The notes below the pieces were generated by a model. The model was not told where the DNA came from and did not search any database. It saw nothing but the letters and a program-made list of their open reading frames with translations. Made by a program: the position numbers and the translations under genes. From an uncultured bacterium (lineage in GTDB: Bacteria > Babelota > Babeliae > Babelales > Vermiphilaceae): a stretch of 64,000 nucleotides of DNA. How positions within the stretch are numbered: the first letter of the stretch is position 1; each line of letters starts with the position of its first letter. Location: contig OY969699.1 in the NCBI GenBank assembly GCA_963702025.1, forward strand, positions 1,408,001 to 1,472,000, written 5' to 3'. Positions 1,516 through 51,133 of this stretch are shown in pieces.

Positions 1516-2871
1516 ATGAAGAAAATGTTAACAATAGCTAGCCTTACGCTGTTGGGAAGCTTTTCCCTCAATGGTATGGAAATGCCGCGCTTAAGGGTCA
1601 AAGAACTGTCTTTAGAAGAGAAAGTAATTAATCTTTACTCATTAATTGCAAGCAACCAACGTCAAATAAAGGAGCTTGAAAAACAAGCCAAACAAGGGGA
1701 AATAACTCCGGACCAGTTTAAAGCTATGGCAAAAGATCGCGTTGGGTTAACTAATGAACTTCAAACTCAAATAGAGCTTGAAAAACAATTGGCAGAGGTT
1801 GAAGCAGAAATAAATACCCTATTCATAACATTAGGGGAATATGAGAAATCACCTCAACGATATGCGACAGAAATTAAATCTATAAGTCAAGTATGGCAAC
1901 AAAAAGAGAATGCAAAAGAAAACATTAAAGAAAAACTGAAAGTTAGCGCTCGGAAGTTAGATGATCTTCAGCTAGGCTTAGTTACTCAAGAAAGAGCAGC
2001 AAAAGCCAAAGTATTACCAAGCGCCAAGCAAAAACCGCCCGTTCCACCACGTGAAGAACCGGTCAAGAAAACACCACCTCCTGTTCCAGCACGCGAACCG
2101 GTAGAACAAGCTCATCCATTGCCAGTTTTGCCCGCTATTAAGAAACCGGCTGAACAGCCCGCTCCCATAGCTGAACAACGTGAGCAAGAACATGCTCGCG
2201 CTGAAAAAGAACGTAAAGCCGCCGGAGAAAGACGAGCCGCTGAACAACAACGCCGTGAGCAAGAACGAAAAGCAGAACAAGAACGAAAAGCCGCTGAAGA
2301 ACAAGCTCGTGCTGAAAAAGAACGTAAAGCAGCCGGAGAAAGGCGAGCCGCTGAACAACAACGCCGTGAGCAAGAACGAAAAGCAGAACAAGAACGAAAG
2401 CACGCTGAAGAACAAGCTCGTGCTGAACGCGCTGAAAAAGAACGTAAAGCAGCCGGAGAAAGGCTAGCCGCTGAACAACAACGCCGTGAGCAAGAACGAA
2501 AAGCGGAACAAGAACGAAAGCACGCTGAAGAACATGCTAGTCCTGAAGAATTAGAAGAACTAGCAGCTGCTATTCAACGACAAATAGACCGAGAACGAGA
2601 TGCTGAATATGTGAGAAAAGAAGCAGCTGAAAAAGGTGCCTTTGCTGCACTTGGCCTTCAGCCAAATGCATCCTGGTCCCAAATTTTAGGATTATCGGAA
2701 AATCCGTCATATGACGAAATAAAAAGCGCTTATAAAAAGCTCACTATAAAATGGTCACCTGATAGAAATCAAGACAAAAGAGCTAATGAAGTCACCAAGC
2801 TGATTAGAACAGCGCGCGATACGTTAGCAGCTAAATATGAACCGGAAAGAGAAGCGCCCTTAGAACATTAA
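1516..2871 (+). CDS. Secreted coiled-coil/Pro-rich/repeat protein with C-terminal degenerate J-domain
   Basis: AGGAG RBS before 1516; leader ...SLNG|MEM; PPVPPR; 37-aa repeats; C-terminal ILGLSENPSYDEIKSAYKKLTIKWSPDRN. Confidence 0.8.
   Translation: MKKMLTIASLTLLGSFSLNGMEMPRLRVKELSLEEKVINLYSLIASNQRQIKELEKQAKQGEITPDQFKAMAKDRVGLTNELQTQIELEKQLAEVEAEINTLFITLGEYEKSPQRYATEIKSISQVWQQKENAKENIKEKLKVSARKLDDLQLGLVTQERAAKAKVLPSAKQKPPVPPREEPVKKTPPPVPAREPVEQAHPLPVLPAIKKPAEQPAPIAEQREQEHARAEKERKAAGERRAAEQQRREQERKAEQERKAAEEQARAEKERKAAGERRAAEQQRREQERKAEQERKHAEEQARAERAEKERKAAGERLAAEQQRREQERKAEQERKHAEEHASPEELEELAAAIQRQIDRERDAEYVRKEAAEKGAFAALGLQPNASWSQILGLSENPSYDEIKSAYKKLTIKWSPDRNQDKRANEVTKLIRTARDTLAAKYEPEREAPLEH
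2194..2535 (+). repeat. Three tandem 111-bp (37-aa) coding repeats
   Basis: Units start at 2194, 2305 and 2416 (third has a 9-bp insertion); ARAEKERKAAGERRAAEQQRREQERKAEQERKxAEEQ. Confidence 0.95.
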
Positions 2872-2903
2872 TTGATTCTGTGGAGGGGGGCATTTTTGCC
2901 CCC

Positions 2904-2933
2904 TTGACTTACGCACTAATTCCATGATAAAAT
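2904..2933 (+). promoter_or_regulatory. sigma70-type promoter, copy 2
   Basis: TTGACTTACGCACTAATTCCATGATAAAAT, directly after a GGGGGCA/TGCCCCC hairpin (2886-2903). Confidence 0.7.
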
Positions 2934-2992
2934 ACAATTAGATAATAAAATATTGTAGTCATCGTATATATATATCAAAAAGGAGAATAATT

Positions 2993-3973
2993 ATGAAAAA
3001 TACGTTAAAAATCGCTTTACTCACCCTTCTGGGTGGCTTTACCTTAAGTAAGGGAATGGAGTTACCATATGTTGGCATCCCAGTCCCCGCAGCTGGAAGC
3101 CAAGGAGAATCACTGGCTCAACGAATAAGCAATATTAATTCTATGCTTGCTGCTAACCAGGAGAATATGAATGAGCTAGAAAACAGCTTCAAAAGAGGTG
3201 CTATTAATGGGGATCAGTTTGAATCGATGATTAAGCATCGTCTTTCGATCTACGAAGAACTTGAAACTGAAAAAAATGAACTGCTTGCACAGCAAAAAGC
3301 ACAAAGAGGAGCATCTGTTGGCATGCCATTACCACCAGTTATAAAGCCTGCTGCAAAAGCACCCCCGGTAATATATGCGCCAACACCTGCAGTAGTTTAT
3401 CAATTAGAGCCGGCCGTTCAACCACGTGAAGAACCGGTCAAGAAGACACCGCCTCTTGTTCCGCCACGAGAACCAGTAAAACCAGCAGAAAAGCCTGCTC
3501 CTGTACAGATCGCACCGGTAGTTGCGCCAATTCTGCCTGCTATTAAAAAACCGGCTGAACAGCCTGCTCCCATAATTGCACCACCGGCACCTAATATTCC
3601 TAAAGCTCCCCCTGCTCCAAAAGGAGGATTTCCGGCCTTCAAAAAACCGGCGGAACAACCTGCTCCCGTACAGCCTGCTCCTGTAGTTGCACCGGTCGCT
3701 GTTCAAGCACCTCAAACTCCTGCTTATCAGGTTCCGCAAGCTGACATTGACAGATGGAAAGCTATGACAAAAGAGAAATTAAGTGCTGAACGAGACAGAC
3801 TTAATTGGAAAATGGGAGCCTTAGCACAAGCACGTCCTTTAAGTAATAAACCTGCCTCTGATGAAGAGATTCAGCTTAATGCGGAAATCAATGCGATTGA
3901 TGAAATAGCCAAAACAAAGAATTTTTGGGTAGCAGGTGAAAAACCAGTTCTTTCTAGAACTTGGCTCCCTTAA
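2993..3973 (+). CDS. Secreted Pro-rich protein, partial paralog of 1516..2871
   Basis: Leader ...LSKG|MEL; shares N-terminal helical segment, PREEPVKKTPP and PAIKKPAEQPAP blocks. Confidence 0.8.
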   Translation: MKNTLKIALLTLLGGFTLSKGMELPYVGIPVPAAGSQGESLAQRISNINSMLAANQENMNELENSFKRGAINGDQFESMIKHRLSIYEELETEKNELLAQQKAQRGASVGMPLPPVIKPAAKAPPVIYAPTPAVVYQLEPAVQPREEPVKKTPPLVPPREPVKPAEKPAPVQIAPVVAPILPAIKKPAEQPAPIIAPPAPNIPKAPPAPKGGFPAFKKPAEQPAPVQPAPVVAPVAVQAPQTPAYQVPQADIDRWKAMTKEKLSAERDRLNWKMGALAQARPLSNKPASDEEIQLNAEINAIDEIAKTKNFWVAGEKPVLSRTWLP

Positions 3974-3990
3974 AACTATTCAAAGAGCTC

Positions 3991-4030
3991 AAAAAAAGAA
4001 GGATGTCAAAATTGACATCCTTCTTTTTTT
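3991..4030. terminator. Intrinsic terminator, bidirectional type
   Basis: A7-GAAGGATGTCAA / TTGACATCCTTC-T7 perfect inverted repeat. Confidence 0.9.
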
Positions 4031-4036
4031 GTTCCC

Positions 4037-5220: not shown

Positions 5221-6123
5221 ATGAGACTGACCTTGCACTATTTTTTATTCTTCTTTCTTTTCGGCATACATACATTTCCACTTTCTGCAATGGAAGAACA
5301 ACCACTAACGCCGCGCACTCGAACTATCATTCAATTAAGTCAGCAAGTTGATAAGGTAACTCGGCAAGTTAATGCGGTGACCGCCGTGGTAATTGGTCAA
5401 GATGCACAACTCAGAGCAACTCAAACGGCATTAACGGCTACGCAATCTCAGCTCACAGATACGCAAGCCGCGCTCATTGATCTTTTAAAGGAAAAAAATG
5501 CCCGTCTTAAAGTCGCGGAAAAAGAGAGAATACTGCAAGCAAAAAATAGCAAGCTCTTGGCTATCGCCCAAAAATGTGCCCTCGGTGCAGCAAAACTCGG
5601 TATATTTCGCGGTGCTTCTGTAATTTTAAAACAATATTCCCAAACTATAATGCCCGGCGATTTTTTAACAAATGAAATTTTGCCTGACCTGTGTGCCACC
5701 GTAGTTGCTCAACAAGCCCCACAATTAGTTTGGAAAGTTTATGAGGGTCTGGGAACAATGACTAACCGTTGTAGTAGCGCATTAAATACGATGTTGGATC
5801 ACTATATAGACCTTTACTTGCAAGAAGATGCTACAGAACCAAACAGCAACAACCTTGCCAGAATCGGAAAACTGTACAAACGTAAAGCAGCATTAGAAAA
5901 AAAACCAGAATGGGAAGAATCATTTGATGAAAGTTTTAGGAGCAGTGTGGATGAGAAAACTAACTTCTTTAAAAATTATCTATCAAACCCGGAAGTAGAA
6001 ATTTTCCCTTTGCATACAGAAAAAATGGCATCTAAAATAGATGCACTTGAAAAAGATATTTCTTTGGCTGAAAAACTCATTAAAGAATGTCATGCTGTAA
6101 AAAGCCTAGCAGAAAGAAAATAA
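5221..6123 (+). CDS. Secreted coiled-coil hypothetical protein
   Basis: Leader ...PLSA|MEE; heptad-rich N-terminal half. Confidence 0.75.
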   Translation: MRLTLHYFLFFFLFGIHTFPLSAMEEQPLTPRTRTIIQLSQQVDKVTRQVNAVTAVVIGQDAQLRATQTALTATQSQLTDTQAALIDLLKEKNARLKVAEKERILQAKNSKLLAIAQKCALGAAKLGIFRGASVILKQYSQTIMPGDFLTNEILPDLCATVVAQQAPQLVWKVYEGLGTMTNRCSSALNTMLDHYIDLYLQEDATEPNSNNLARIGKLYKRKAALEKKPEWEESFDESFRSSVDEKTNFFKNYLSNPEVEIFPLHTEKMASKIDALEKDISLAEKLIKECHAVKSLAERK

Positions 6124-6160: not shown

Positions 6161-6706
6161 ATGAATCACCAGTTAATTGCATTTGCATGTATAGTAAGTT
6201 TCTCATCAACATATGGGATGGATAATGCATTAGTACAATCTCATGCTACGGCTTTAACGAAAGATGCGCATGCCCAAGCATTGGTAGAATTACTGCAAAT
6301 CGATGCAAACCGATCTGAAGAACTTAAAAAAATCCACCTACGGATGCTTAAGCAAGAAGAAGAAAAAACAAGCCTGCAGGCTCAGTTAAGAGCAACGAAG
6401 GATGAGCTTGCCAATCAAAAAACCAATAATCAAAATCTTGCAGATCAAATGACACTTCTACAAGAATCTAATATTAGACTGGAAATAAAAGTAGATTCTC
6501 TCAAACGCGACAAATCCGAACTTCGTTTTTATGTTACCGGTGCTATTTTTATCGGCGGACTAGCAGTCTTAAGCCATATTATTAAATTGCCGCAAACAAA
6601 TAGTAGTGTTGAAGAAATTATTAAATCAAAACCTGTTCAAGCAGATGATAAAAAATCTGATCCAGCAGATATAGATTACGCAGACCTGGTACATGGCCTG
6701 TTGTAA
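6161..6706 (+). CDS. Secreted coiled-coil protein with late hydrophobic segment
   Basis: Leader ...STYG|MDN; coiled coil then FYVTGAIFIGGLAVLSHII. Confidence 0.75.
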   Translation: MNHQLIAFACIVSFSSTYGMDNALVQSHATALTKDAHAQALVELLQIDANRSEELKKIHLRMLKQEEEKTSLQAQLRATKDELANQKTNNQNLADQMTLLQESNIRLEIKVDSLKRDKSELRFYVTGAIFIGGLAVLSHIIKLPQTNSSVEEIIKSKPVQADDKKSDPADIDYADLVHGLL

Positions 6707-8140: not shown

Positions 8141-8647
8141 ATGATTAACAAATCTCTAACTCTTCTTATGGTACTCAGTATTTCAGCAACCTATGGCATG
8201 CAAAAGCAACAACTTCAACTATCATCGGCGCAATTACAACAGGGTATTTATACTCGATTGAATTCTCATGAGGATCAACTGAGAAAAAATACCGATCAAA
8301 TAAATGCACTTGAAAAAATATTAAAAGATAGGGAAGAAGAAAAAAAAATATTGGCAGAAGCGCACGCAATAAAAGATAATGAAAATGCCAAAAAGCTGAA
8401 AGAATTAACCGCTGAAAATACTCAATTGCAGAATAGCGTGAGTAATCTTCAGGCTGCTGCAATTGGAACTGGTATTTTTGCGGGTTTATCTGCTCTTGTC
8501 GGCTTAGTTTGGCTTGTAGATCATCAAGAAACTCTCAAAGAGCATAAAGAAACTCTCAATGAACATGGGAACGAGTTGAGAAATCATGGCTACGAGTTGC
8601 GAAATAATCAAGAAACTCTCCAAAAGTTTGCCAACAAGCCCAAATAG
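8141..8647 (+). CDS. Secreted coiled-coil plus transmembrane protein, paralog of 6161..6706
   Basis: Leader ...ATYG|MQK; AAAIGTGIFAGLSALVGLVWLV; five 7-aa repeats at the C-terminus. Confidence 0.75.
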   Translation: MINKSLTLLMVLSISATYGMQKQQLQLSSAQLQQGIYTRLNSHEDQLRKNTDQINALEKILKDREEEKKILAEAHAIKDNENAKKLKELTAENTQLQNSVSNLQAAAIGTGIFAGLSALVGLVWLVDHQETLKEHKETLNEHGNELRNHGYELRNNQETLQKFANKPK

Positions 8648-9421: not shown

Positions 9422-9620
9422 CGTTACTCCTAAAAAAAGTAATTTAACAATTTTCAACACATCGAATAATAACAAATATTTATCGAAAATCAATATATTT
9501 TTTGAAAAATGTTTTATAAATATGCATTTCTGCAAGTTACTTCCACTGATATTCGACAATCGGTATAATGGCTTAAATGAATTTTAAGATTACGCAATGC
9601 AAATAAAAAAAGGGTCACGA

Positions 9621-10965: not shown

Positions 10966-11586
10966 ATGTTCACATGCAAAGCACTCGCCATCATTCTTCT
11001 TGTAAGCTCATCCAGCACATTTTCCATGCAAAATGAAAAAAATAATGAGCAACCAAACCCATTTTTGCAAGGTTCTCAAGCAATACCGGTTCCCTCTATT
11101 ATTTATCCTTCTCTTCCAGTACCGCCCGTAACTCTTTCAATACCATTACCAATATTACCCAATGAATTACCAAAACGGAGCTTATGGGCCGGTGGCGCAA
11201 TTGCCAATATTGGTATTGCTGACCATGCAACGCGTTTCACCATAAGCACACTTGCGCATGCCAATGGATGCATTGAACATCGATATGCACCATCTACCTA
11301 TCTACTTGCCGCAGCAGGTGCGGGCCTGGCGGGTGCTTCAGCCGGATCCGTTTTACTCTGCGCAAAAAAAGCATATTGCGGACAACAAGCAATCATCAAG
11401 AAAAAAAAGGCCGCGCTGGGCATTGGCAAAGTAGCCAGTGGCGCCATTATTTTTGCACTGAGCACTCAATTAACTTCCCTTGATGATTCAATGGCCACTA
11501 CCACTCTTGCGCGCGGCGGGCAATTTATCAGTTTGGCCTGCGCCGCCGATGGTATTTATGATATTTATACATCTGTTGGCAAATAA
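10966..11586 (+). CDS. Secreted hypothetical protein with Pro-rich and Gly/Ala hydrophobic helices
   Basis: Leader ...STFS|MQN. Confidence 0.7.
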   Translation: MFTCKALAIILLVSSSSTFSMQNEKNNEQPNPFLQGSQAIPVPSIIYPSLPVPPVTLSIPLPILPNELPKRSLWAGGAIANIGIADHATRFTISTLAHANGCIEHRYAPSTYLLAAAGAGLAGASAGSVLLCAKKAYCGQQAIIKKKKAALGIGKVASGAIIFALSTQLTSLDDSMATTTLARGGQFISLACAADGIYDIYTSVGK

Positions 11587-11819: not shown

Positions 11820-12542
11820 ATGAAAACATCCATCTCATTACTTCTACTCACCATCTGCACAGTACCGCAGTACCTCGTTGCGTCCGAACATTGCAGCAAA
11901 AAGAAAATTGATCCATCACATGAATATTCCACCTGGGAAAGCCTCATTGATCAATCAATAATTCAAGCATGCATTAAAAGCACGCAATGGTGCAAACAAA
12001 GAACATTGAAAGAGAATGAAAAGGATTTACAAACTGCCTGCGAGCAGCTGAATAATGATATTGCGAAACTTAAAAACGGAAACCATTCACGTGCTAAGAG
12101 TGCGCGAGATGCCGTATGGACCATTTATCTAAAAAAAACATTCGATATAACTGAAAGTCAAAAGGATCTTTCCAAAAACAAGATTACCCAACTGGAACAA
12201 CAATTACGCAGAAAGGAGCTGCTCAGTTTACACTATGAATTACACAATCAGAATAATTGGCAATCGCATATTTCGTCAGAAATTATAAGCGCTTGCCGGC
12301 GAGTAAATAATAATCTGGGCTCACTGGAACTGGAATCAAAAGATGTGGAAGTTCATAAAGCTTGTGCCCAATTGCAAAAGGATATGCTTGCTTTGACATA
12401 TGGGAATAAGGGAAAAGCTGCGGATGCCCGCCGAAACATCGACATCATTAACAGCAAAACTAGTTCTACTGAAGTTCCCGGCGGCTGCAGTCGTACAAGT
12501 GCGGAAATGATCGATGCTTTGGCAAATCGACAGCTTTCATAA
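11820..12542 (+). CDS. Secreted protein with internal two-fold repeat
   Basis: Leader ...YLVA|SEH; WESLIDQSIIQAC...ACEQLNNDIAKLKNGN repeated as WQSHISSEIISAC...ACAQLQKDMLALTYGN. Confidence 0.75.
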   Translation: MKTSISLLLLTICTVPQYLVASEHCSKKKIDPSHEYSTWESLIDQSIIQACIKSTQWCKQRTLKENEKDLQTACEQLNNDIAKLKNGNHSRAKSARDAVWTIYLKKTFDITESQKDLSKNKITQLEQQLRRKELLSLHYELHNQNNWQSHISSEIISACRRVNNNLGSLELESKDVEVHKACAQLQKDMLALTYGNKGKAADARRNIDIINSKTSSTEVPGGCSRTSAEMIDALANRQLS

Positions 12543-12830: not shown

Positions 12831-13529
12831 TTAACTTTTTTTTAACAATGCGTTAAACTCGGCAACAACTTTTGCATGATGTTCTTTATCTGCTGCAAAA
12901 TCATAAGAAAACGTAGAGGCAATCTCGCTCCCGGAATATTTTGGAGTAAATGGAGGACGGTAGCCTCTGGTTATCATTATATCGGACGCCCCTTCTTCAT
13001 CCTTTGCAGTTTCACTCTTATGTTTTTGATATGCTTCACGTAGCGGCGCATTATAAATCTTATCTTCTTCGGTTTCAAAACCTGAAAATAAAAGCTCAAC
13101 TTTTTTGTTATTTACCAAGCAGTGAACTTTACCGGTTGGGATATAGCTGAGCAAGCGATGCACCTGATCTTTTTTTGTCATCATAACTAAACATGCACCG
13201 CTATCAATGGTGCCATTCTTTATTTTTTCAAGTAGCTCATGAAATGGCTTTTGATCGAGATCACGAGCTTTTGATGCTTGCACGCAGAGTTGGATAAAAA
13301 ATGGCTGTTGCACCCGCGCAAGCTTTACCGTATCATCTGCTTGCTCGGTTTCTGCCAGCGGGCTAAGATAATGGTCATAGATTTCTTTGACCCTGCCGCC
13401 TCGGCCATCGCTTACCCACACATCGCCATTATCTTCGATGATGCATTTGAAATAGGGGCGGCCTTCCATTGCTTGCATGCTTATAATACTAAAACACGCT
13501 AATGCGATTATATTTTTTATGTAATTCAT
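12831..13529 (-). CDS. Secreted protein, unknown family X
   Basis: Leader ...SMQA|MEG; FIQLCVQASK, HRLLSYIPTG and YDFAADKEHHAK shared with paralogs. Confidence 0.8.
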   Translation of the reverse strand: MNYIKNIIALACFSIISMQAMEGRPYFKCIIEDNGDVWVSDGRGGRVKEIYDHYLSPLAETEQADDTVKLARVQQPFFIQLCVQASKARDLDQKPFHELLEKIKNGTIDSGACLVMMTKKDQVHRLLSYIPTGKVHCLVNNKKVELLFSGFETEEDKIYNAPLREAYQKHKSETAKDEEGASDIMITRGYRPPFTPKYSGSEIASTFSYDFAADKEHHAKVVAEFNALLKKS

Positions 13530-13556: not shown

Positions 13557-14321
13557 CTATTTTCCAACTTCACGCAACTCTTGTTTCCATGCTTGTTTTT
13601 TTTGTTCTAGTTTTGCTGCTTCTTGCAGTGCAGCCTCTTTGTCTTGTTGATATTTTTTTAAAACAAATTTGCAACCCGGTGCAAAAAAGGGCAATACATT
13701 GCATCTTAAAATTACCGGTAGAGAGACTGATCGCTTTATATGTGTAAACATAAGCTCGGCTACGCCCTCATCTTTTATTGCTTGCATCTGATTAAAGATG
13801 CCAAAGTCGGGCTCCGCTACAAGAGAGCGATGAGAAAATGGATACTCGTCTGGATCAGCAAAAGTTATTGCCATTGCCCCTTCCCGGCTATAAAGCCCAA
13901 AAAAAACTTTCAAGAAACCAATATTCTTGTGCGCCAGAGCCTTATCAAAAAATGATACTTTTGTATTAATAGCGAATAAGGTGAACTGACTTGCTGGTGG
14001 CTTTGTCCAGTAATAATCTTCGTCCCTGTAGTAAGTTTGTTTATATTTAATTTCATTTCTAACCTCATATCTATCACTCGCGGAATCTTTATTTGCGCAT
14101 AATAGAGCACGAAGATAGAGGCTATCTTTTTTTCTTTCAAAATTTTCAGCAAGCTTTTCTAATTGCTCAGTTCTGCACTTGTAGTCACATCCTTGTTTTT
14201 CGAATTCTTGTAAAAATTTACGATGGTCTTCTTGCGAACACGGTTCAATTTTCTCTTCCATTGCACATAGGCTTATAATGCTAAAACAAGCTAACGCAAT
14301 TATTTTTTTGGTAATATTCAT
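13557..14321 (-). CDS. Secreted hypothetical protein
   Basis: Leader MNITKKIIALACFSIISLCA|MEE, nearly identical to the neighbour's leader. Confidence 0.75.
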   Translation of the reverse strand: MNITKKIIALACFSIISLCAMEEKIEPCSQEDHRKFLQEFEKQGCDYKCRTEQLEKLAENFERKKDSLYLRALLCANKDSASDRYEVRNEIKYKQTYYRDEDYYWTKPPASQFTLFAINTKVSFFDKALAHKNIGFLKVFFGLYSREGAMAITFADPDEYPFSHRSLVAEPDFGIFNQMQAIKDEGVAELMFTHIKRSVSLPVILRCNVLPFFAPGCKFVLKKYQQDKEAALQEAAKLEQKKQAWKQELREVGK

Positions 14322-14330: not shown

Positions 14331-15050
14331 TTATGGCAATTTGTTTTGGAACAGCCCATTAAATTCAGCAACAATTTTTGCGTGATGTTCTTTATCTGCT
14401 GCAAAATCATAATTTGAGCTCAAGCGATCTTCACCGGTTAATTCCGTTTCTTTTCCTCTTCTGGCTTTTTGAGCAGCCAAAAATTCATAACATGGAAAGC
14501 CAGCCGGATCTAAAGGAAAATCTTCTTCCACTTTAGGCGCAACTGTTCTCACGATAGATTTATCTGGCTTATCAACCAATCGCATGCCAAGAATAATAGT
14601 CATTCTAATTTTTTTGTCGTTTACCAATTGCTTATTCACTTCTTTTCCCGAAGGAATATAACTGAGCAATCGATGTTCAGCATCTTTGTGGGTCACGGCA
14701 ATAGTTTCTTGTTCAGCCTCAATCTTGCCGCTTCGAACTCTATCCAACAATTCATGAAAGGGTATTGTATCGAGCTGCTTTATTTTTGAAGCTTGCACCA
14801 CTAGTTGAATAAATAATGCCTGTGGAATATTAAAATGTTGTTTGATATCATCTGCATTTTTAGTTTTATCCAGTGAATAAAAAAAGTTCGGATACGTTTC
14901 CTTTATCATGCCGCCGTGCTCATCTTTTATCCACACATCACCATTGCTGTCTTCTTCACTAAATACTCTATAATTATAAGCGCGCCCATCCTCCATTGCA
15001 GATGTAGCATTTGATAACAGTAGTACAGTTAGTAAGGCTTTTTTTAACAT
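14331..15050 (-). CDS. Secreted protein, unknown family X
   Basis: Leader ...ATSA|MED; FIQLVVQASK, HRLLSYIPSG, YDFAADKEHHAK. Confidence 0.8.
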   Translation of the reverse strand: MLKKALLTVLLLSNATSAMEDGRAYNYRVFSEEDSNGDVWIKDEHGGMIKETYPNFFYSLDKTKNADDIKQHFNIPQALFIQLVVQASKIKQLDTIPFHELLDRVRSGKIEAEQETIAVTHKDAEHRLLSYIPSGKEVNKQLVNDKKIRMTIILGMRLVDKPDKSIVRTVAPKVEEDFPLDPAGFPCYEFLAAQKARRGKETELTGEDRLSSNYDFAADKEHHAKIVAEFNGLFQNKLP

Positions 15051-15062: not shown

Positions 15063-15179
15063 TTATTGAATATCACAAGACCATGAAGACCGTATTAACT
15101 GGGTAGCTTTAATCGGGTTCTGCTGCATGAAATAGACTGCATTCGATGTAAGTATTATTATAAAGGCTTTTTTTAACAT
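15063..15179 (-). pseudogene. Leader-only mini ORF (38 aa)
   Basis: MLKKAFIIILTSNAVYF|MQQNPIKATQLIRSSWSCDIQ*; TAATG-coupled to the upstream gene; leader resembles that of 14331..15050. Confidence 0.6.
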
Positions 15180-16066
15180 TATTTTTCCAATTCTTGTTTA
15201 ACTGTTTCAATAAAAGATGCTTCCCATCCTGTTGTGTTTGATGCTGAAAATATTGCTAGCAAACTAAGAATTCGTTTTCGAGATTCTTGTAATTGAATCA
15301 AGGTATACGTGTCCTGCTGCGATAGAATATTGGCAGGCTTTTGTAATTGAGCGATCTCTTTTTCTTTGCTTTGCAATGCCTCCTGTTTTGCCACAGCATC
15401 GGACGTGAGAGCCTGTACTTGCAGCGTTAAAAGAGCCGCATCATTTATTTTTTCTAGTAACTGAGTTTTCAAACGAGCTGCTGAATCCTGAAGCTCTTTA
15501 TGTTCTTGCGCCGAAATCACCTGTTGCCCAGATAGCTGCGTTTGTAAATGCGCAATCAACTCATCTCTTTGTGTAAAAGCTGCCTCCAATTCTTTAGCCA
15601 TTTTTTTATAGCCAAGTGCTTGCTGTCTCGCTTCTTCACCATAAAATGCTTGATCAATAGTACTGAAACTGGCCGCAGCCATGTCTGATACATAATCATG
15701 ATTTGCCAATTCCCATAGCTTTTTCAATCCTGCGAGTTTCTCAATTTTAGTTGTTATTGCTTGAGACTGGCCTTGATTTGCAGAAATTCCATTAAATGCC
15801 ATCTCCAATTCTTTTGCGATTGCTTGGGCACGATTACGCATTTCCCTGTTACCCGTATTTAAGAATTCTATCGTTGCAGGATCATGGTCAGTATTATCCC
15901 AATTTTGTTCTGGAATCAAATTATGTAATTTTTTTATTCCCGCCTGGAATTCTGCTTTGTGTTTAGCTATTTCTTGCAAACCCGAACGTTCCATGCAAAA
16001 AAGCAAGACGTTAAAGCTAAAACCGGCTAGTAAAATAAATATTTTTTTTACCATGTTGATTCTCAT
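15179..16066 (-). CDS. Secreted coiled-coil protein
   Basis: Leader ...LLFC|MER; C-terminal QESRKRILSLLAIFSASNTTGWEASFI module. Confidence 0.8.
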   Translation of the reverse strand: MRINMVKKIFILLAGFSFNVLLFCMERSGLQEIAKHKAEFQAGIKKLHNLIPEQNWDNTDHDPATIEFLNTGNREMRNRAQAIAKELEMAFNGISANQGQSQAITTKIEKLAGLKKLWELANHDYVSDMAAASFSTIDQAFYGEEARQQALGYKKMAKELEAAFTQRDELIAHLQTQLSGQQVISAQEHKELQDSAARLKTQLLEKINDAALLTLQVQALTSDAVAKQEALQSKEKEIAQLQKPANILSQQDTYTLIQLQESRKRILSLLAIFSASNTTGWEASFIETVKQELEK

Positions 16067-34844: not shown

Positions 34845-35465
34845 TTACGGACACCAGCTATCATCATATCGATATCGTTTTTCAGATGCTTTTTCTTTGG
34901 CTTCTCGAGCCTCACGATTCTTCTTGGATGAAAAAAGTTGCATTCCTACCGGAATATCCTTTACCCCAGTTGTTGTAAGGAGAACATGATCCCAAGAAGC
35001 ATGGTAATGCATATAAATATCCATACAGCGCTTAACAACTGAACTTTTAGTATAAAGCTGCTCGATTTCTTTGTGTCTATCCTGTCCTTGATATTTTAAT
35101 TTCTCATTTAATTTTTCATTAAGTTCTACGGGCAGCTTTTTAACCTGTATTAATATCGGCGTAATACGGAGCTGCTCATTTTCCTGAGTAATGGTTGCAA
35201 TTTTATTGAGGGTGGTTATCGCGGTAAAAAGATCAAGTTGCTTTTCCAGCGGAGCATTCACCATATCAGTATATTTATTAAGGCTTTCATGAGGAAATTG
35301 GGCATCAATTTTTTGAGCCAGAAGATCGCACTGCTGATTGCGCACGGATGCAATTTCTCTGATTATTTTCTCGAGACACAATGAAACGAGGGGAGGGATA
35401 TATCTTGAATTTTGCATTGGATAAATGTTTGAAACAAAAAATAAAGGAAGTAGTAAGTATTTCAT
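34845..35465 (-). CDS. Secreted protein with BC-box-like motif
   Basis: Leader ...NIYP|MQN; IPPLVSLCLEKI; ends WCP. Confidence 0.7.
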   Translation of the reverse strand: MKYLLLPLFFVSNIYPMQNSRYIPPLVSLCLEKIIREIASVRNQQCDLLAQKIDAQFPHESLNKYTDMVNAPLEKQLDLFTAITTLNKIATITQENEQLRITPILIQVKKLPVELNEKLNEKLKYQGQDRHKEIEQLYTKSSVVKRCMDIYMHYHASWDHVLLTTTGVKDIPVGMQLFSSKKNREAREAKEKASEKRYRYDDSWCP

Positions 35466-37653: not shown

Positions 37654-38487
37654 CTATTTATCGTCATTTTCTAATTTAGATGTATCAAATCCCCATTTTG
37701 CGCACAAGCCATGTAATGCAAGCATAGCGCTCGAATAGCCTTTACAGCTATAGATCGCTCTCAAATCTGTTTCTAATTTATCATTGCCATGCGCCATTTC
37801 TGCAAAAAAATCAGGGCCTTTTAATAGATTCATCTGATATCTATGAGTGTTATACATATGATCTTGAATTCTGGCAACTTCATCGGCAGTCAAAAGGGGA
37901 TTAAGTGAAGGCTTTTTTTGAGCCGCTTCAAGAAGCGTTTTGAATGCTTCAACTATTTTTGAATCAACATCATAATCAGCAGTGCCGTATACATTAACTA
38001 TCACCGGCCTTTCAAGATTTTTTGTTTGCTCTGTTCTAATAAAACCTACGTTTGCAAATTTATCATTTAATAATGTTTGATGCCACGCAATTCCCTGTTC
38101 TTTATCCACGTTGCCATTCCAAGGAATGAATTGTAAGAGTTTATGAAAGGATGCTGATTGCTGTGTCAAGACATCGCAAGCATAGCGATGCGATTTGCTC
38201 GCACGATCTTCTTCGTTATCGATATCTTCCATCACTTTGCAAAAATCCGTTGGTTTAAAATTGGTATCATGGGCAGCTTGTGTGCACAAATGAGAAAAAA
38301 GTCCCCTTTGTATTGCTATAAGAGTATTTGATTGCGGGGATATATCTTTAAAGCAATCGATCACATCTGGCGAAGATATAAGAGGCTTATTGTAGGCAGC
38401 CAAAAGATTTTCTTTTGGGGCTTCCATAGCCTGGAGGCTAAATATGCTAAAACATGCTAATGCCATTGTACTTTTAATAAGTTTCAT
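37654..38487 (-). CDS. Secreted protein, unknown family X (IPW subtype) with C-terminal extension
   Basis: GAGG RBS; leader ...SLQA|MEA; LFSHLCTQA, FHKLLQFIPWNGNVD. Confidence 0.8.
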   Translation of the reverse strand: MKLIKSTMALACFSIFSLQAMEAPKENLLAAYNKPLISSPDVIDCFKDISPQSNTLIAIQRGLFSHLCTQAAHDTNFKPTDFCKVMEDIDNEEDRASKSHRYACDVLTQQSASFHKLLQFIPWNGNVDKEQGIAWHQTLLNDKFANVGFIRTEQTKNLERPVIVNVYGTADYDVDSKIVEAFKTLLEAAQKKPSLNPLLTADEVARIQDHMYNTHRYQMNLLKGPDFFAEMAHGNDKLETDLRAIYSCKGYSSAMLALHGLCAKWGFDTSKLENDDK

Positions 38488-38596: not shown

Positions 38597-39958
38597 CTAT
38601 TTTGATTCATCTTCTTTCAAGTAATTCTCAGCTAATTCTTTCCAATTAATCGCCTTTGGCTGTCTTTTTTGCGCTTTGTGCAATTCAACTTCACGGCGAA
38701 GATCTTCAAATTGTTGTATGCGGGCTTCGAAAAGAGGGTGTGTACTTTTAAATGTTTCTTTCTTCGGAGCTTCCAGCAAGTACTCCTCTGCACTCATTGT
38801 CCCTCTGTTTCCCCAGGCTATTGCATCATCGATAGGAATGCCAAATTCTATAATCGCAAATCTATCTGCTTCTAATTCTTGGGTTCTGCTATATGCATGC
38901 TCAAAGCTTTCTTTAAATGGTAGATGCTCACTAGTTTTTTTCTCTTTTTTAAATTCTTCAATTGCAGCCTTTTGCAAAACTGAATGGGTTAAAGTCTGAG
39001 GCTCAAATAAGTGGCCTAATGCAAAATGTCCCAATTCATGCGCTATAACAAAGCGAAGCTCACCAATAGGTTGTTTTGTTGTGCTAGCGCCTATCCTAAT
39101 AAGCGGTAAACCATCTTTGGGTGAAGAATAAACTAATGCGATATCATCTATATAATTTCTTTTAATGTGATCAGATCCGGTTGGATCGACTGCTAGTATT
39201 GCTTCATATAATGAGGACGCAAAGGATTTAATTACCTCCAATATTTGCATGCGCTCGCTTTCGGTAATAGCAGGTGTTTTGGCTACCGTATCATTATATT
39301 GCCTAAGATACCCTGATAGACTTTCTTTTTGCGCTTCTTGGTCATAATATTTTATCCCCGGATCAAATATAATAACCGGATATCCATAAATTTCATCACT
39401 CCCCTGAATCCCTGCTGCTTTCGGATCCACTGCCATTTCCAGGCATGGCTTGCCATTTGCTGCTTCGCATTTTCTAAGTGTTTCATATCCTTGAGGATTA
39501 ATGTGCTGAATAATCTTCATCCAATATTCGTATTCATCTTTGGGGAATGAATAATCTTCTTTCTGCGCATATTTTTCAGATATAAAATCAAGACCTGGCT
39601 TAAAGGCCAAGTATTTGGCAGCCATTAAGAATGCAAAGTTATCTTTAATCGGAATCTCTTGCTCTGCCTTCTTAAGAAATTGTTTTTCATTGAGATTTTT
39701 ATGTTGATAAAGCAGTTGCATTAATTGTGCAATTTCTGCCAGTACTTCCCCTGAAATACTAAGATACGCACTCCCATAGTCTCGGAGGATGTTTGCAAAG
39801 ACCTCTGATTTTTGTGCAATTTCAAAAGGAACTTTAAATTCTTTTTTATCAGAGCTTATCAGCGTCACCATGGCTGGAGCTTGCGGTGGCAGCTCCATGG
39901 CATTGAGCATGGCGCTCAAACCCAATACGATAAATATGATTGATAGTTGTAGCTTCAT
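38597..39958 (-). CDS. Secreted Skp1/BTB-like domain fused to M48-like metallopeptidase
   Basis: Leader ...MLNA|MEL; VTLISSDKKEFKV...FLMAAKYL; HELGH, QELEADRFA, STHP..RI. Confidence 0.85.
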   Translation of the reverse strand: MKLQLSIIFIVLGLSAMLNAMELPPQAPAMVTLISSDKKEFKVPFEIAQKSEVFANILRDYGSAYLSISGEVLAEIAQLMQLLYQHKNLNEKQFLKKAEQEIPIKDNFAFLMAAKYLAFKPGLDFISEKYAQKEDYSFPKDEYEYWMKIIQHINPQGYETLRKCEAANGKPCLEMAVDPKAAGIQGSDEIYGYPVIIFDPGIKYYDQEAQKESLSGYLRQYNDTVAKTPAITESERMQILEVIKSFASSLYEAILAVDPTGSDHIKRNYIDDIALVYSSPKDGLPLIRIGASTTKQPIGELRFVIAHELGHFALGHLFEPQTLTHSVLQKAAIEEFKKEKKTSEHLPFKESFEHAYSRTQELEADRFAIIEFGIPIDDAIAWGNRGTMSAEEYLLEAPKKETFKSTHPLFEARIQQFEDLRREVELHKAQKRQPKAINWKELAENYLKEDESK

Positions 39959-41305
39959 TAATTACCGCTTTCTTTATTCTTCAACATTTCTTCTAATTCA
40001 TTATGTAAATAGGTCGGCAAAAGATTTTTTGCTCTTTCAAGAGTTATTTTGCCCTCTTTCACCCACTGTGCCACGTTTTTTACTGATTTGAATTCTGCTT
40101 GCGCTATATCTGATGTTTCGAGCAGTTCTTGTTTAGTTTCAAGATTTAACGCTTCCACTCTCGCTATATGCTTCTTTTCTTCCGGCATCATCGGCCTTTT
40201 TTCGATTCTAAACCCAAGCTCATTAAGCTTAGCTTTTTCAACGTCTAAAAAAGATCGCGTTTTCATTTTTCTTATCTCACCAGATTCTGTTTTTGTGAGC
40301 CCCTTTGTTAATATTTTTTCAATCTCCGCAAATTCTTTTATCGCATTATCCATAAAAACAGACTTTTTATCTTGGTTTAAGCGCTTGGCTTTCTCGCTTA
40401 ATTCTTTTGTCCAATCAAGCATGGTTTTACCATTTTTGTCCGTGATGCTCATAATACTGCCATGCCCTTTAATCACTTCTACACTCTCATCCATATGTGT
40501 TCCCTCCGGCAACCAATTAACATAGGTCTTGAGTAAATAGTATAGGTGACGACCGCCATCATATTTTGCCAACGCGAAAGCCTCTTCGACTGCGATTACG
40601 TAGGCAGCGATATGGAGGGCCACATGTGCTTCTTGTGGGGTATATCTTTTACCATGGATTGTACTTTTGTATGTACCTTCTCTTTCTTCTGCAATAAATG
40701 GGCCATAGTTTTTATAGCGCTTTGAAAGATTATTAAATCTAATCTGTGGCCCCTTAAGATTTTCAAGCACGTTATATATTCCATATTCTACTATTGTCAG
40801 TTCCTGGATAGCCTCTTTCAGTTCATAGGTAGCCGTTTGCCGCTCATAGATAGCCATTATCCGTTCATAGGTACCCGTTTTCAGTTCATCGGTATCATAC
40901 GGAGGCGTTCCTTCTGCCAACATCATCCCTATCGCATCCAGATCATACCGAAAGCTAAGCTCAAGCTCTCCCTCAATAATGCGCGGTGGCATCCCTTCAT
41001 TATTAAGTTTATTTTTAAAATCAGGATCAGCAGCAATAGCATTCTCAACAAAGGTTTTTATCGCCTGGAGTTGCCCAGTAAGATCTTTTATCTCTTTAAC
41101 TAATGCGTTCAGAGTATTTGTATCCTTTTCAGGGTTAATTCTGATACTTTTGTCTCTAATTTCCCTTACATTTTTGGTCAAATGTTGCACCATATCAGTC
41201 AAGTTTTTTATTCACATCTTTATTTCCACCAACAGGCAGCTCCATGGCATTGAGCAGGGTGCTCATGCTCAGGATGGCGAGAACAATGTTTTTTGACAGA
41301 TTCAT
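39958..41305 (-). pseudogene. Secreted helical protein split by a frameshift in an A6 run
   Basis: AAGGA RBS and leader MNLSKNIVLAILSMSTLLNA|MELP at 41305; frame break at 41204-41209; 414-aa body continues to 39958. Confidence 0.75.
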
Positions 41306-41319: not shown

Positions 41320-42312
41320 TTATTGCAAACTTTTTAACATTTCTTCTAATTGTTTCTGTAAATCAGCGGGAAGTTTTTTCTTCGCTTGTTCAAGCGTGAT
41401 TTGACCGCTTTTAATTTGCTGTGCAACTGCTTTCAATGATTGCTGGCGCAACGAGGGAGCTTGCACATACTTTGCTAGTAATTCGATTATTGGTTGATAT
41501 TTTTCAGATTCAGTAGGGTGCGCTTTTATTATTTCTTCTAAACTTTCTATTAATGTTTTGTCTGAAAGAAGACCTATTTTTGGATTAGGGTTAGCGCCCG
41601 CCTCAAGCAGCATTTTAATAATTGGATAATTTTTTGCCTCTACTGCTTTTTCTAAAATAGTATAATACCTTCCGTGTGAACTATATGCATACGTATTAAG
41701 ATCTGCCCCGGCTTCTAGCAGCTTTTTGAATAGCACTGGATCATTATTTTCTAAAGCTGCATTAAGAGGGCTCGAAGAACCATACCGTTCTGAAATCATA
41801 TAACTAGGATTAGGAGTAAAGCCTATATCAAGAAACAACATAAGCATCTCTCGAGATCCGGGATTTCGAAGATCCTGTATGAATGACTTAAAAATTTGTT
41901 CGAGATCAATAGATAGTTTTGGATGTGATTTAAACCACTGTTGTGCTTGCGCGGTAGAAAACCATCGTTTTGCACCCGGAGTTTTTAACGCAAGTGCTAC
42001 TGTAATACGATCTCCATTAGTCCATTTAGTAGCAAGATCGGTAATAAGGTTATTAGTAATACTTGCATCATTAATCAGCTGATTGAATTGTTTGTCAACA
42101 AGTGTTAATGCTCTGATTGTTTGAATTGCAGTTCCTAATGAATCAGAATTTGTTATGTCATTAGTAATTTGAGCTTGTAACTCTGTAGGCAATCCCGATA
42201 AAGATAATAGTGATGGTTCAATAGTGCGTGGTTTCTCCATAGAAAAAATAGATGCATTTTTGGTAAGAGATAGTATAACGAGAAGCATTATGGTGTATTT
42301 GACGGCATTCAT
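41320..42312 (-). CDS. Secreted F-box-like plus ankyrin protein with C-terminal SOCS/BC-box-like tail
   Basis: Leader ...SIFS|MEK; LSGLPTELQAQI; SPLNAAL..KLLEAGAD; APSLRQQSLKAV...LPADLQKQL. Confidence 0.82.
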   Translation of the reverse strand: MNAVKYTIMLLVILSLTKNASIFSMEKPRTIEPSLLSLSGLPTELQAQITNDITNSDSLGTAIQTIRALTLVDKQFNQLINDASITNNLITDLATKWTNGDRITVALALKTPGAKRWFSTAQAQQWFKSHPKLSIDLEQIFKSFIQDLRNPGSREMLMLFLDIGFTPNPSYMISERYGSSSPLNAALENNDPVLFKKLLEAGADLNTYAYSSHGRYYTILEKAVEAKNYPIIKMLLEAGANPNPKIGLLSDKTLIESLEEIIKAHPTESEKYQPIIELLAKYVQAPSLRQQSLKAVAQQIKSGQITLEQAKKKLPADLQKQLEEMLKSLQ

Positions 42313-43030: not shown

Positions 43031-43579
43031 ATGAAAAAATTGTTAATTGCTTCAATTATTGGATTATTACCGGCAGTAATTTCTGCATCTGAAAGAAAAA
43101 TTAATTGCGATGACTTTGCAAAACATATTGAAAATGAGCTTAAGAAGAAAGAACATGGTATGAATGGTTTTTATGGTGCGTATTATTACCAGAAAACAAA
43201 TTTTTTCGGCATGCCTGTTGGCAAGCCTGAGCTTTGCACTTCTTATTTCATTAATGGCACATGTGAGGTAACGTATAAAAAAAGAAATTGTAAAGCAGCA
43301 GGTGAAGAGGGTGATTCTTATGCAATAATACTTTTGCCTGGCAGAATTGCGCTCTTTAAGCAATATCATAATGCTCTTAAGCAATGCGCAGAAACCTCTG
43401 AAGACTCCTGCCCATTAGCAGCGCAAACCATGCGTAAACTTGAAGAAAAAATGGATATGTGTTCGCAATGCATTGATTTATACAATCAAGGCAAGGCTGA
43501 AGCATCAAAAAAAGATAAAGAAGAAAAAGTAAGAAAAGATGCTTTTGATAAATTAATTAATGATACCAATAAAAAATAG
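43031..43579 (+). CDS. Secreted Cys-containing hypothetical protein
   Basis: AGGA RBS; leader ...VISA|SER. Confidence 0.75.
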   Translation: MKKLLIASIIGLLPAVISASERKINCDDFAKHIENELKKKEHGMNGFYGAYYYQKTNFFGMPVGKPELCTSYFINGTCEVTYKKRNCKAAGEEGDSYAIILLPGRIALFKQYHNALKQCAETSEDSCPLAAQTMRKLEEKMDMCSQCIDLYNQGKAEASKKDKEEKVRKDAFDKLINDTNKK

Positions 43580-49038: not shown

Positions 49039-49052
49039 CAGTAACTATAGCC

Positions 49053-49076: not shown

Positions 49077-49095
49077 TATATAAATGGAGAAAACT

Positions 49096-49896
49096 ATGTT
49101 AAAAATAAAGAATTATTCAATGTATCTTTTATTAGTAACTGCACTCGCATTCAGCTCTCTTGCCAGCGGCATGGATGCTGATCACACACAACGTAATGCA
49201 ATTACCAGAATTAATGCGATTACCAATCATTTAACACCACAAGCACCTACCAGCGGCACATTACATCATGGCATTACCGAAAGTGGTATCGAATATGTCT
49301 TTTATAAGGTTGCTACTAAAAAAGAAAATCAGCACGCAAGCCCAACCGTGCAAAAACAGACTGGTTTGAGTATTGAGGATTTTAATACAGAAAACGATTA
49401 TAAAAAAGCAAAGCAATTATTGAAAGATAATTGGGATGATTTAATTGGTTATGATGAACCGTGTACTGAAGATTCTTGCCAAACAGTTGCATATTACTTG
49501 TTCAAAACACAAAGATCAGCTAATTATCGTCCTCACCCATTAATAGTTAAAACGGTGAAAAATAATGGTCAAATGATCGGCTTCATTGGCTATGTGTTAT
49601 ATGATTCTGCAAATAACGATAAAAATTACCCATCAGGTTATCTTCTCAATGCACCACTTGATGCTGGCCATATTGAAATAATGGCGGTAGATGCAGCATA
49701 TCGCAGAACAGGAGCAGGCATGCAATTAATGCAGCATGCGCTCAATGATCTTATTCAAAAAGGTGCCAAAAAAATAAATCTAGGGGTTAAAAATGATAAT
49801 AAACCCGCATGGAATTTATATCTTAAATTAGGCTTTACCATTGATAAAAAATTTGATGATAAAAATACTATGTTGGTAAAAATAATCAAGAAATAA
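49096..49896 (+). CDS. Secreted GNAT acetyltransferase (RimI/NAT-like)
   Basis: Leader ...LASG|MDA; MAVDAAYRRTGAG, V..DNKPAWNLYLKLGF. Confidence 0.85.
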   Translation: MLKIKNYSMYLLLVTALAFSSLASGMDADHTQRNAITRINAITNHLTPQAPTSGTLHHGITESGIEYVFYKVATKKENQHASPTVQKQTGLSIEDFNTENDYKKAKQLLKDNWDDLIGYDEPCTEDSCQTVAYYLFKTQRSANYRPHPLIVKTVKNNGQMIGFIGYVLYDSANNDKNYPSGYLLNAPLDAGHIEIMAVDAAYRRTGAGMQLMQHALNDLIQKGAKKINLGVKNDNKPAWNLYLKLGFTIDKKFDDKNTMLVKIIKK

Positions 49897-49950
49897 GCGA
49901 CGGCAACAATTACTTTATAAAATACATTATAAAAAGATACGAGAGGCTCT

Positions 49951-50407
49951 ATGTTACCAAAAATATACGCATTAATTATATCCGCATTCTGTATCAGCTC
50001 ACTTGCTGCCATGGATCCCTCAGAAAATCAACCGTGGGAAAAGAAGCTTGCCGAGCTAACCAATGGCCGCTCATCCGGGCGCAACAGTCCGCATGAAACT
50101 ACCGCAGGGACATGTTGAAGATTTTGTGAAAGATGCAACGGATAACAAAAAAAGAATCCTACGAATTTATAATTTTGAATCTGGGCGCAACTTAGTGGGC
50201 ACCATGGATTATCCTACCTCTGATCCAGTGAAAACAGTAGATGGCATAACCTATATCGTATCGAAGCCTCTCAATGTTAACGCATCTGACATAATTAAGA
50301 AACAGACTATCGCTGATAAAACTGCTGAAAAAGAAAGATTGGAAAGAATAATAGCAGACATCAAACAAGAGCTTAAAGATGCACAGAAATTGAGAGCTCG
50401 ATTATAA
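49951..50407 (+). pseudogene. Internally deleted, frameshifted paralog of 48031..49038
   Basis: Leader MLPKIYALIISAFCISSLAA|MDP at 49951 is out of frame with 50063..50407, which closely matches the last ~115 aa of 48031..49038. Confidence 0.75.
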
Positions 50408-50421
50408 TACTATATATCTAT

Positions 50422-50452
50422 AAAGGGGCCGTGGATTAAAGCGGCCCTTTTT
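50422..50452 (+). terminator. Intrinsic terminator
   Basis: AAAGGGGCCG / CGGCCCTTTTT. Confidence 0.75.
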
Positions 50453-50647
50453 CATTAGGAGCGCAGTAATTTTTGCAGAAGAAAGATGGGGGTACAAAAG
50501 TCTTTTGCCCCATGTTGCAAAACTCATCAAAGAATTCTTCATCTTTCCAGATAGCAGTCAAAGCGCATACTCTTGCCCAAATAGAAAATTAATATAAAAT
50601 ACAAAAGAATAGATATTACGAAACATTTCTTAATTAATGGACTATTT

Positions 50648-51133
50648 ATGAAAAATTTTATTCTCCTTGCCAGTAAAAGAATTATTTTGGTCCTGCCATT
50701 AATCACCTTTGCAAACAATACTCGTTGCATGAATGGATTTGACCAATCACTCAACCCTGATCACTTAATTGAAAATAAAGCACAGAGCTTACTGGTCATG
50801 CTGCAAACGGTGCCAACAGATCACCGGGTTACGGCCGATCTGTTAAAAAATATTAACGTTATGAGATTTTTTAAGTTCATGGAAGAGTATGTCAAAATAT
50901 TTCCCGCAATGAGTGGCACAGAATTTAAGAGAATGATGAGTGAATTGGATCAGTATGTTGAGCAACATCTTCCGGCGGGCCAACAATGTTATCTTAAAGA
51001 AGTTTCTGAATTTTTACAGCAACGTTATTTTTCCGATTATTCCGTGAATGAACTTTTTACCTTTAGTCTTTTAATTGCAGCAATTGAAGATTTAACGGAA
51101 CTGAATAGATTGATAAGCAAAAGAGCTCAATAA
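50648..51133 (+). CDS. Secreted helical hypothetical protein
   Basis: Leader ...NTRC|MNG. Confidence 0.65.
   Translation: MKNFILLASKRIILVLPLITFANNTRCMNGFDQSLNPDHLIENKAQSLLVMLQTVPTDHRVTADLLKNINVMRFFKFMEEYVKIFPAMSGTEFKRMMSELDQYVEQHLPAGQQCYLKEVSEFLQQRYFSDYSVNELFTFSLLIAAIEDLTELNRLISKRAQ

Follow-up and report, generated by a model that had tools for sequence, protein, structure and literature searches.

Predicted secretory leaders in an uncultured Vermiphilaceae bacterium of the Babelota (Dependentiae), a phylum whose members live as parasites inside protist cells, often place a methionine exactly where the mature protein would begin. We analyzed a 64,000-nucleotide stretch of its genome (contig OY969699.1, positions 1,408,001 to 1,472,000; hereafter the window, to which coordinates refer unless marked G000, the whole genome containing it) together with that genome. 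In the predicted leaders, the best signal-peptidase-I-like site directly precedes this Met, usually as Met-Glu, and the Met+1 pattern is real and genome-wide. It is also cargo-selective, and Met-Glu may have been selected for surviving N-terminal quality control in the host.

Genes were called by a hexamer model, and signal-peptide-like N-termini were flagged by charge and hydrophobicity only (our own detector, not SignalP); signal anchors and lipoproteins fall within this set, as do some false positives from the cytoplasm (14/184 of the non-Met proteins that were scanned). Sec/signal peptidase I signal peptides have a basic n-region, a hydrophobic h-region, and a length of 15 to 30 residues, and the leaders so flagged agree with this. 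Among 717 soluble proteins of this kind, 350 had a Met 3 to 11 residues past the hydrophobic window (111 expected), mostly at residues 17 to 26; A, G, or S preceded it in 75% and E followed it in 48%, and neither bias was seen at internal control Met residues. Chosen blind to its flanks, the Met was preceded by A in 37%, G in 22%, S in 16%, P in 6%, T in 5%, and C in 5%, with L (22%), A (18%), S (13%), and I (11%) leading at position -3. An expectation-maximization cleavage model that uses positions -12 to -1, and is blind to +1 onward, placed Met at +1 in 195/681 proteins, as against 2 at -1, 19 at +2, and 49 at +3 (Met background, 1.9%); at its 558 confident sites, +1 was Met in 177 and Gln in 28. 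When sites were instead picked by Glu at +2, Met stood at +1 in 150/201. A refined rule assigned 301/681 proteins to the Met class, and the same rule applied to 400 kb of E. coli flagged 5/48, none of them followed by E, D, Q, or N, which we take as the false-positive floor.

An earlier note on the window had listed 28 open reading frames (ORFs) or remnants with such leaders, and its description proved accurate in most respects. Each of the 28 begins with an ATG in frame on the strand that the note implied, 11 of them plus and 17 minus; a hydrophobic core is followed by Met at residue 17 to 28 in every case; the residue before Met is mostly small (A13, G7, S2, C2, T2, P1, F1); and the residue after it is E in 16, Q in 6, D in 3, and N, V, and I in one each, exactly as noted. 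Genome-wide, the predicted cleavage site falls directly before the Met, as the note had supposed, and in 17 of the 28 window leaders the Met site is the top site of the blind model. Five further leaders, described as exposing Ser (11820, 22856, 43031) or Cys (24862, 58096), are likewise present. The phrase “Lys-rich start” is somewhat generous, as a few leaders carry no more than one Lys/Arg and 6161 lacks any. “Unrelated cargoes” does not hold throughout: 13529, 15050, 19288, 20860, 21492, and 38487 form one family (A3), and 1516/2993, 16066/17346, 20019/22298, and 22856/35465 are homologous pairs. Three of the 28 are remnants (15179, 41305, 49951), and a Pfam family above the cutoff was assigned to 6 of the 25 intact ORFs: DnaJ, ankyrin twice, DUF637, Skp1_POZ plus M48, and GNAT.

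The residues after Met are equally distinctive. Position +2 was E, Q, D, or N in 222/301 Met-class leaders versus 31/91 confident non-Met leaders (p = 2e-11) and 68/324 true starts; it was small in 39/301 and bulky hydrophobic in 16/301. Glu alone occupied +2 in 54% of the Met class versus 9/324 genome start codons, and it was mildly favored in non-Met leaders too (15/91). The consensus extends to Lys at +3 (26%) and Pro at +4 (28%), with Lys/Arg in 4% of Met-class leaders at +2 and 29% at +3. The motif MEKP is genome-specific, with 19 matches in G000 versus 0 to 3 in each of 150 other genomes, as is the flavor MELP. The suggestion that Ser starts extend the pattern to NatA substrates proved weak: Ser-Glu was found at 4/201 +2-Glu sites here, fewer than Gln-Glu (9) or Asp-Glu (5), and at 9/109 in relatives; a general Ser/NatA class was rejected on these counts. 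Cys content failed to separate the Met from the non-Met class.

Cargo of the leaders and spread in the phylum

The genome is a single contig of 1.596 Mb with 39% GC, 95% complete, and its family also includes Vermiphilus pyriformis and strain Noda2021. The closest relatives of its ATP-synthase gamma subunit mostly bear the labels Babeliales, Dependentiae, or TM6, or are unclassified. It encodes three TLC-family nucleotide transporters, two secretins, one signal peptidase I, and one signal peptidase II. A genome search, at that completeness, found no export families of the TolC, VirB4, or FlhA type. For Babelota, many signal-peptide-bearing ankyrin proteins have been described, with type II as the only secretion system reported (PMC4378268, PMC6561590, PMC4776705), and signal-peptide proteins may make up as much as 44% of genes (PMC6561590). 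In the first half of G000, leader-like N-termini also stand on normally cytoplasmic enzymes (LigD parts, peroxiredoxin, NDP kinase, HIT, UDP-glucose dehydrogenase, SDR, HAD) and on six tandem GT17 glycosyltransferases at about 498 to 503 kb; these predicted leaders suggest relocation of cytoplasmic-type enzymes to the periplasm or the host.

The Met rule correlates with cargo: it marks ankyrin, leucine-rich-repeat, WD40, IBR, CaaX-ended, and fast-turnover orphan proteins and spares the envelope. A Pfam scan of the first 786 kb covered 184/187 non-Met and 150/180 Met-class proteins, with every sequence trimmed to 420 residues, and its matches were sorted by hand with knowledge of class. By this sorting, 41 proteins with eukaryote-like domains were Met and 8 were not, whereas 1 envelope protein was Met and 19 were not (Fisher p = 8e-10); inspection by eye showed Met in two of these 8. 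Equal Met frequency in periplasmic proteins, which the earlier note had named as telling against its idea, was thus not what we found (1/20 envelope versus 41/49), and the envelope protein BamA, for example, has a predicted mature start of Gln. Other Pfam families were Met in 13 and not in 48, and proteins with no family were split evenly (95 and 95). In the second half of the genome, held out of the scan, 23/27 ankyrin-motif proteins belonged to the Met class versus 130/314 overall. Homologues of at least 40% identity in sampled relative DNA were found for 9/301 Met-class versus 68/380 non-Met proteins.

The destination proposed in the earlier note, the host cytosol, gains independent support from C-termini of the CaaX type (C-terminal Cys-x-aliphatic-X). 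These end 10/301 Met-class proteins versus 0.43 expected by sliding, none of them in the window, under a pattern refined after the result of the first pattern (1/301) was seen; 15 of all 18 CaaX-ended ORFs have a leader and Met by eye. Bacterial CaaX effectors can be farnesylated and lipidated by host cytosolic enzymes (PMC2916131), and such ends are therefore the best independent sign of destination. About 15 CaaX-ended secreted proteins (e.g., G000 C1:479107-481810, 429263, 696142, 722941, and 1481338), several of them ankyrin- or WD40-repeat proteins, are candidate host-prenylated effectors, and L059 and L027 have comparable ends. A predicted secreted protein combining ankyrin repeats with an IBR domain (RBR-type E3 ligase), which has leader-bearing homologues, lies at L071:15237-16496 (G000 75237-76745).

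The Met rule extends widely, if unevenly, through Babelota. In the DNA sampled, the Met class accounted for 67/153 in the same-genus genome G124, 57/195 at loci around ATP synthase, 14/79 in Noda2021, and 17/110 in a 20-genome family sample. A 28-position leader profile, which is biased to this genome and was scored on at most 55 candidates per genome, matched in 80/150 other Babelota genomes and 12/18 families (E ≤0.001), with 4 strong matches genome-wide in V. pyriformis; none of three outside genomes matched at that threshold (best E, 0.23). The profile replaced a phylum-wide DNA-pattern count, which was set aside because its reversed-pattern control could not be trusted: the count stood at 72 versus 10 in an unrelated genome of high GC. 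Similar Ala-Met-Glu leaders may occur in Holosporales proteins. Beyond the phylum, the ESM Atlas gave no usable match for a leader and only sub-0.8 matches for an orphan, the profile run against 1.84 billion proteins gave 2 matches that were repetitive and uninformative, and a plasmid search returned ordinary ankyrin proteins only.

As to origin, 268/301 leaders are DNA singletons with no DNA-level relative, their cargoes form 164 clusters, and only 3/35 similar-leader pairs carry nonhomologous cargo, which together rule out a single mobile leader cassette. Local leader swapping and remnants do occur, as in the 14321 leader, shared with other cargo, and the leader stub at 15179, and the Met of the GNAT protein at 49096 lies in a newly gained N-terminal segment, its seven homologues beginning differently. 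The Met is kept where leaders and cargo have diverged to 25 to 45% identity. Within family A3, by eye, 17/21 listed members start with Met, 2 with Ser-Glu, and 2 distant ones with Gln or Asp. A first paralogue identity profile was circular at Met and went unused.

Explanations for the Met-Glu start

We give a probability of about 0.5 to the reading that Met-Glu was selected for surviving host N-terminal quality control, presenting no Arg/N-degron, no Met to be removed, and no Met-hydrophobic degron. The sequence shows translation to begin at the first ATG, with a Sec-type leader, and the single LepB would cleave directly before Met; either vesicles or the type II system, which was the only route over the outer membrane that we found, would then carry the mature protein out of the periplasm, and it would reach the protist cytosol. 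At the start of an ordinary signal-peptidase product there is often Glu, Asp, Gln, Asn, Lys, or a bulky residue, and a eukaryotic cytosol would read it as an N-degron; Met-Glu would escape that degron, trimming by Met aminopeptidase, and the Met-hydrophobic degron. As treated in PMC8037982, degraded N-termini include Glu, Asp, Gln, Asn, Lys, and Arg; Met before a small residue is trimmed, Met-hydrophobic is a conditional degron, and Met-Asn and Met-Gln are sometimes trimmed unless acetylated. Met-Glu is predicted to pass all of these listed filters without acetylation. NatB recognizes Met-Glu, -Asp, -Asn, and -Gln, and it is tethered to the ribosome and acts on nascent chains (PMC9692967), so that acetylation of proteins arriving post-translationally is a guess. 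The earlier note's proposal of NatB substrates is thus borne out for the residue class (222/301), but acetylation of an imported protein remains an assumption; it may add stability, the data do not require it, and NatB is not needed to account for the residues at +2. New effectors would acquire Met+1 by duplication and local leader swapping, which would account for the genome-specific MEKP and MELP flavor.

Several observations weigh against selection by host quality control. Ser, Ala, or Thr would equally avoid the Arg/N-degron, so stability alone does not account for the dominance of Met, and the E:D ratio of 163:16 here versus 22:12 in G124 looks like descent. Six of the 49 eukaryote-like proteins have no Met by eye; of five IBR/RBR-ligase homologues with a leader-like start, only one has Met-Glu, the others apparently beginning with Ala, Thr, or Phe/Ser, and one IBR-ligase homologue may start with Phe. 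The envelope control is weakened in that many of its 20 proteins are not cleaved substrates but anchors or lipoproteins. V. pyriformis, with 2/47 in 200 kb, lies under the E. coli false-positive level. Nuclear localization signals are not enriched in the Met class (38 versus 29.7 expected; strong signals, 29 versus 28.3), and peroxisomal targeting signals are not clearly so (PTS2, 3 versus 1.1; PTS1, 4 versus 0.9), a suggestive excess only, as controls exceed expectation too. The residue at -1 is atypical in 31/301 sites (Pro 19, Thr 12), and a small residue stands at -3 in 11 of the 12 with Thr, some of which may therefore be cut two residues earlier. More generally, the mature ends are predictions of our own detector and model, and cleavage, delivery, and half-life are likewise predictions from sequence.

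Among the alternatives, a sorting tag would account for Met instead of Ser: a periplasmic receptor, a type II component, or a vacuole translocon would read the exposed Met-Glu(-x-Pro) N-terminus and pick host cargo. The sharp cargo split and the consensus reaching +3 Lys and +4 Pro fit such a tag, and with two secretins, no export gate of the TolC, VirB4, or FlhA type found, and about 680 leader-bearing proteins, some selection step would be needed. Type II recognition is, however, generally of folded structure, and no candidate receptor was identified in our analysis. The MEKP extension is moreover genome-specific, and host-type cargoes without Met, together with Met/Ser exchange inside families, show that Met+1 is not obligatory for host-type cargo, which disfavors the mandatory export tag that the earlier note had entertained. 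Mature N-termini do specify export in Plasmodium (PMC10653839), and we rate a sorting tag as rather unlikely overall. We are just as doubtful of a bolder version, a bacterial analogue of the Plasmodium route in a phylum where no type III or IV system has been found. In it, exposed Met-Glu would be a dedicated address read by an undescribed step that takes Sec-exported proteins through the outer membrane and the vacuole membrane to the cytosol of the protist, and it would double as N-degron camouflage. Inheritance without current function is unlikely; here the Met would be the old start codon of captured genes given a leader, or would go back to a small number of ancestral leaders that duplication and shuffling had spread. 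In favor are an SDR and a LigD part, among a few enzymes of the Met class in which Met lies at about the usual start of such proteins, the leader swaps and stubs in the window, and the MEKP/MELP bias, a local flavor that inheritance would explain. Yet most leaders have no DNA-level relative and few similar ones carry nonhomologous cargo, Glu at +2 is far from its frequency at genome start codons, and the +2 set is unlike that of eukaryotes (Arabidopsis ME, 11 to 14%; MA, MS, and MG together, about 40%; PMC8037982 table 2). Met also persists through deep divergence and across 12/18 families, and the window GNAT gained its Met with a new segment that its homologues do not have.

A preference on the bacterial side, with a Babelota peptidase cutting best before Met-Glu or with Met-Glu resisting periplasmic aminopeptidases, appears improbable. 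Atypical -1 residues are seemingly tolerated before Met-Glu, acidic +2 residues are mildly favored in non-Met leaders as well, and the Q-rule of Bacteroidetes works through extracytoplasmic stability (PMC10653852). But the single LepB, which carries the Ser/Lys catalytic motifs of E. coli LepB and looks ordinary at the level examined, so that an unusual signal peptidase was rejected, must also process envelope proteins, which are without Met; and the Q-rule is not compartment-selective (PMC5837995), whereas the Met rule is cargo-selective. That the second Met is a translation start, either bacterial (misannotated or dual) or Kozak-like for host ribosomes, is very improbable and largely refuted. 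Ala-Met-Glu codons do automatically give G at -3 and +4, but a Shine-Dalgarno 4-mer precedes 240/350 first versus 4/350 second ATGs. With a single upstream ATG the counts are 140 versus 2 of 208, and in the window 16 versus 0 of 28, which tells against the alternative named in the earlier note, that the second Met is just the start of translation. An intact in-frame leader precedes each Met, and synonymous codons before it are near those before other internal Met residues (p = 0.03, 0.26, and 0.17).

Leader genes of the window

On the plus strand, 1516..2871 encodes 451 residues with a leader, Met21-Glu (ATG 1576), and a C-terminal DnaJ domain, and is homologous to the 326-residue orphan at 2993..3973 (Met22-Glu, 3056). 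Further plus-strand orphans lie at 5221..6123 (Met24-Glu, 5290), 6161..6706 (Met20-Asp, 6218), 8141..8647 (Met20-Gln, 8198), and 10966..11586 (Met21-Gln, 11026), and at 11820..12542 a leader without Met has a probable Ser-Glu start, its site not fixed by the blind model. An IS4-like DDE transposase (6784-8013, minus) sits among these genes, and three PAF-acetylhydrolase-like hydrolases with N-terminal hydrophobic segments are found at 9597-10781 and 55472-57963.

The minus-strand run includes family A3 members at 12831..13529 (Met21-Glu, 13469), 14331..15050 (Met19-Glu, 14996), 18722..19288 (Met20-Glu, 19231), 20048..20860 (Met19-Glu, 20806), 20857..21492 (Met21-Ile, 21432), and 37654..38487 (Met21-Glu, 38427). 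The protein at 13557..14321 (minus; Met21-Glu, 14261) has a leader in common with 13529 and 38487 on cargo that is not detectably homologous, a leader swap, and the 38-residue stub at 15063..15179 (minus; Phe-Met-Gln) partially duplicates the 15050 leader. Also on this strand are an orphan at 15179..16066 (Met25-Glu, 15994), whose C-terminus is in common with that of 16066..17346 (Met22-Val, 17283; site uncertain, blind rank 6); an ankyrin-repeat protein at 17497..18273 (Met22-Glu, 18210); 19294..20019 (Met19-Gln, 19965), homologous to the orphan at 21504..22298 (Met19-Gln, 22244); and 22299..22856, with a probable Ser-Arg start, a homologue (24% over 209 residues) of 34845..35465 (minus; Met17-Gln, 35417), which has an atypical Pro at -1. 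A 66-residue ORF with Met19-Glu (18499) lies on the plus strand at 18445..18645, and two AAA_14/DUF4143 ATPases are found at 23101 and 25754.

A protein of 2,102 residues (27201..33509, plus; Met24-Glu, 27270), has DUF637, a haemagglutinin-like region, and may be of the polymorphic-toxin type. At 38597..39958 (minus), Skp1_POZ-like and peptidase M48 domains follow Met21-Glu (39898), although the top blind site is an earlier Met17-Leu, and an ankyrin-repeat protein stands at 41320..42312 (minus; Met25-Glu, 42240). A 36-residue leader stub with Met21-Glu (41195..41305, minus) is out of frame with a 414-residue ORF (39958-41202) beside an A-run; this region (39958-41305, minus) and 49951-50407 (plus), the latter containing a 55-residue remnant with a leader and Met21-Asp (49951..50118), have out-of-frame leaders that may reflect broken genes, phase variation, or sequence error. 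Two remaining Met leaders, both plus, belong to the GNAT at 49096..49896 (Met26-Asp, 49171) and to 50648..51133 (Met28-Asn, 50729), a weak case. In the GNAT, residues 38 to 46, 12 residues past Met, form a nonapeptide resembling the peroxisomal PTS2 pattern R-I-x5-H-L, missing in its seven homologues. The leader at 43031..43579 (plus) has a probable Ser-Glu start, and its homologue in G161 starts Gln-Glu. Cys stands near the cleavage site in several ankyrin or orphan proteins, namely an orphan at 24862..25623 (plus) and an ankyrin-repeat protein at 58096..58761 (plus), each with a possible Cys start, and G000 297158 and 320689; with signal peptidase II encoded, such proteins, including the orphan at 24862, may be lipoproteins and hence a second delivery class.

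Comparison with known systems

The Met+1 rule is apparently undescribed so far. A literature search by titles and the starts of abstracts, with subscription papers, bioRxiv supplements, and the Babela signal-peptide supplement outside its scope, found no such rule. Babela massiliensis and Chromulinavorax destructans belong to the same phylum and have the same ankyrin and eukaryote-like cargo classes, Sec leaders, and type II secretion only; in the main texts of their reports, signal peptides are only noted (PMC4378268, PMC6561590), and the word “methionine” is absent from the former and “motif” from the latter. This literature (PMC6561590 and related), as far as its main text goes, offers no means to separate host-directed cargo from envelope proteins, and +1 Met would be a one-residue predictor of host-directed proteins, with about 300 candidates in this genome. 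The rule also offers a direct way to study how the host cytosol is reached by a bacterium whose secretion is limited to Sec and type II; should stability be the right reading, this would be a whole bacterial secretome shaped by host N-terminal quality control.

Effects of an N-terminal residue in the host cytosol are known for single proteins, as in anthrax lethal factor, whose potency is reported to depend on it in a manner read as an N-end-rule effect (PMC2518864); here a proteome-wide rule covering hundreds of proteins is proposed. Plasmodium PEXEL is similar in that cleavage exposes a mature N-terminus with a semiconserved second position on hundreds of exported proteins, with acetylation discussed, and differs as a system of a eukaryotic parasite with a dedicated protease and translocon and acetylation in the parasite, where +1 is not fixed and position 2 is dispensable for export (PMC10653839). 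Closest is the Bacteroidetes Q-rule, likewise a phylum-level +1 preference of signal peptidase I substrates tied to mature-protein stability (PMC5837995, PMC10653852). The residue here is Met, however, and not Gln (28/558 confident sites); it is found on host-facing cargo only and not in all compartments; and its frequency is patchy, 4 to 44% in our samples versus about 70% for the Q-rule (PMC5837995, PMC10653852). No bacterial modifying enzyme was identified, no search for a glutaminyl cyclase or analogue having been made, and the proposed reader is the host. The Met rule thus resembles the Q-rule in outline yet departs from it in the residue and in the compartment independence that define it.

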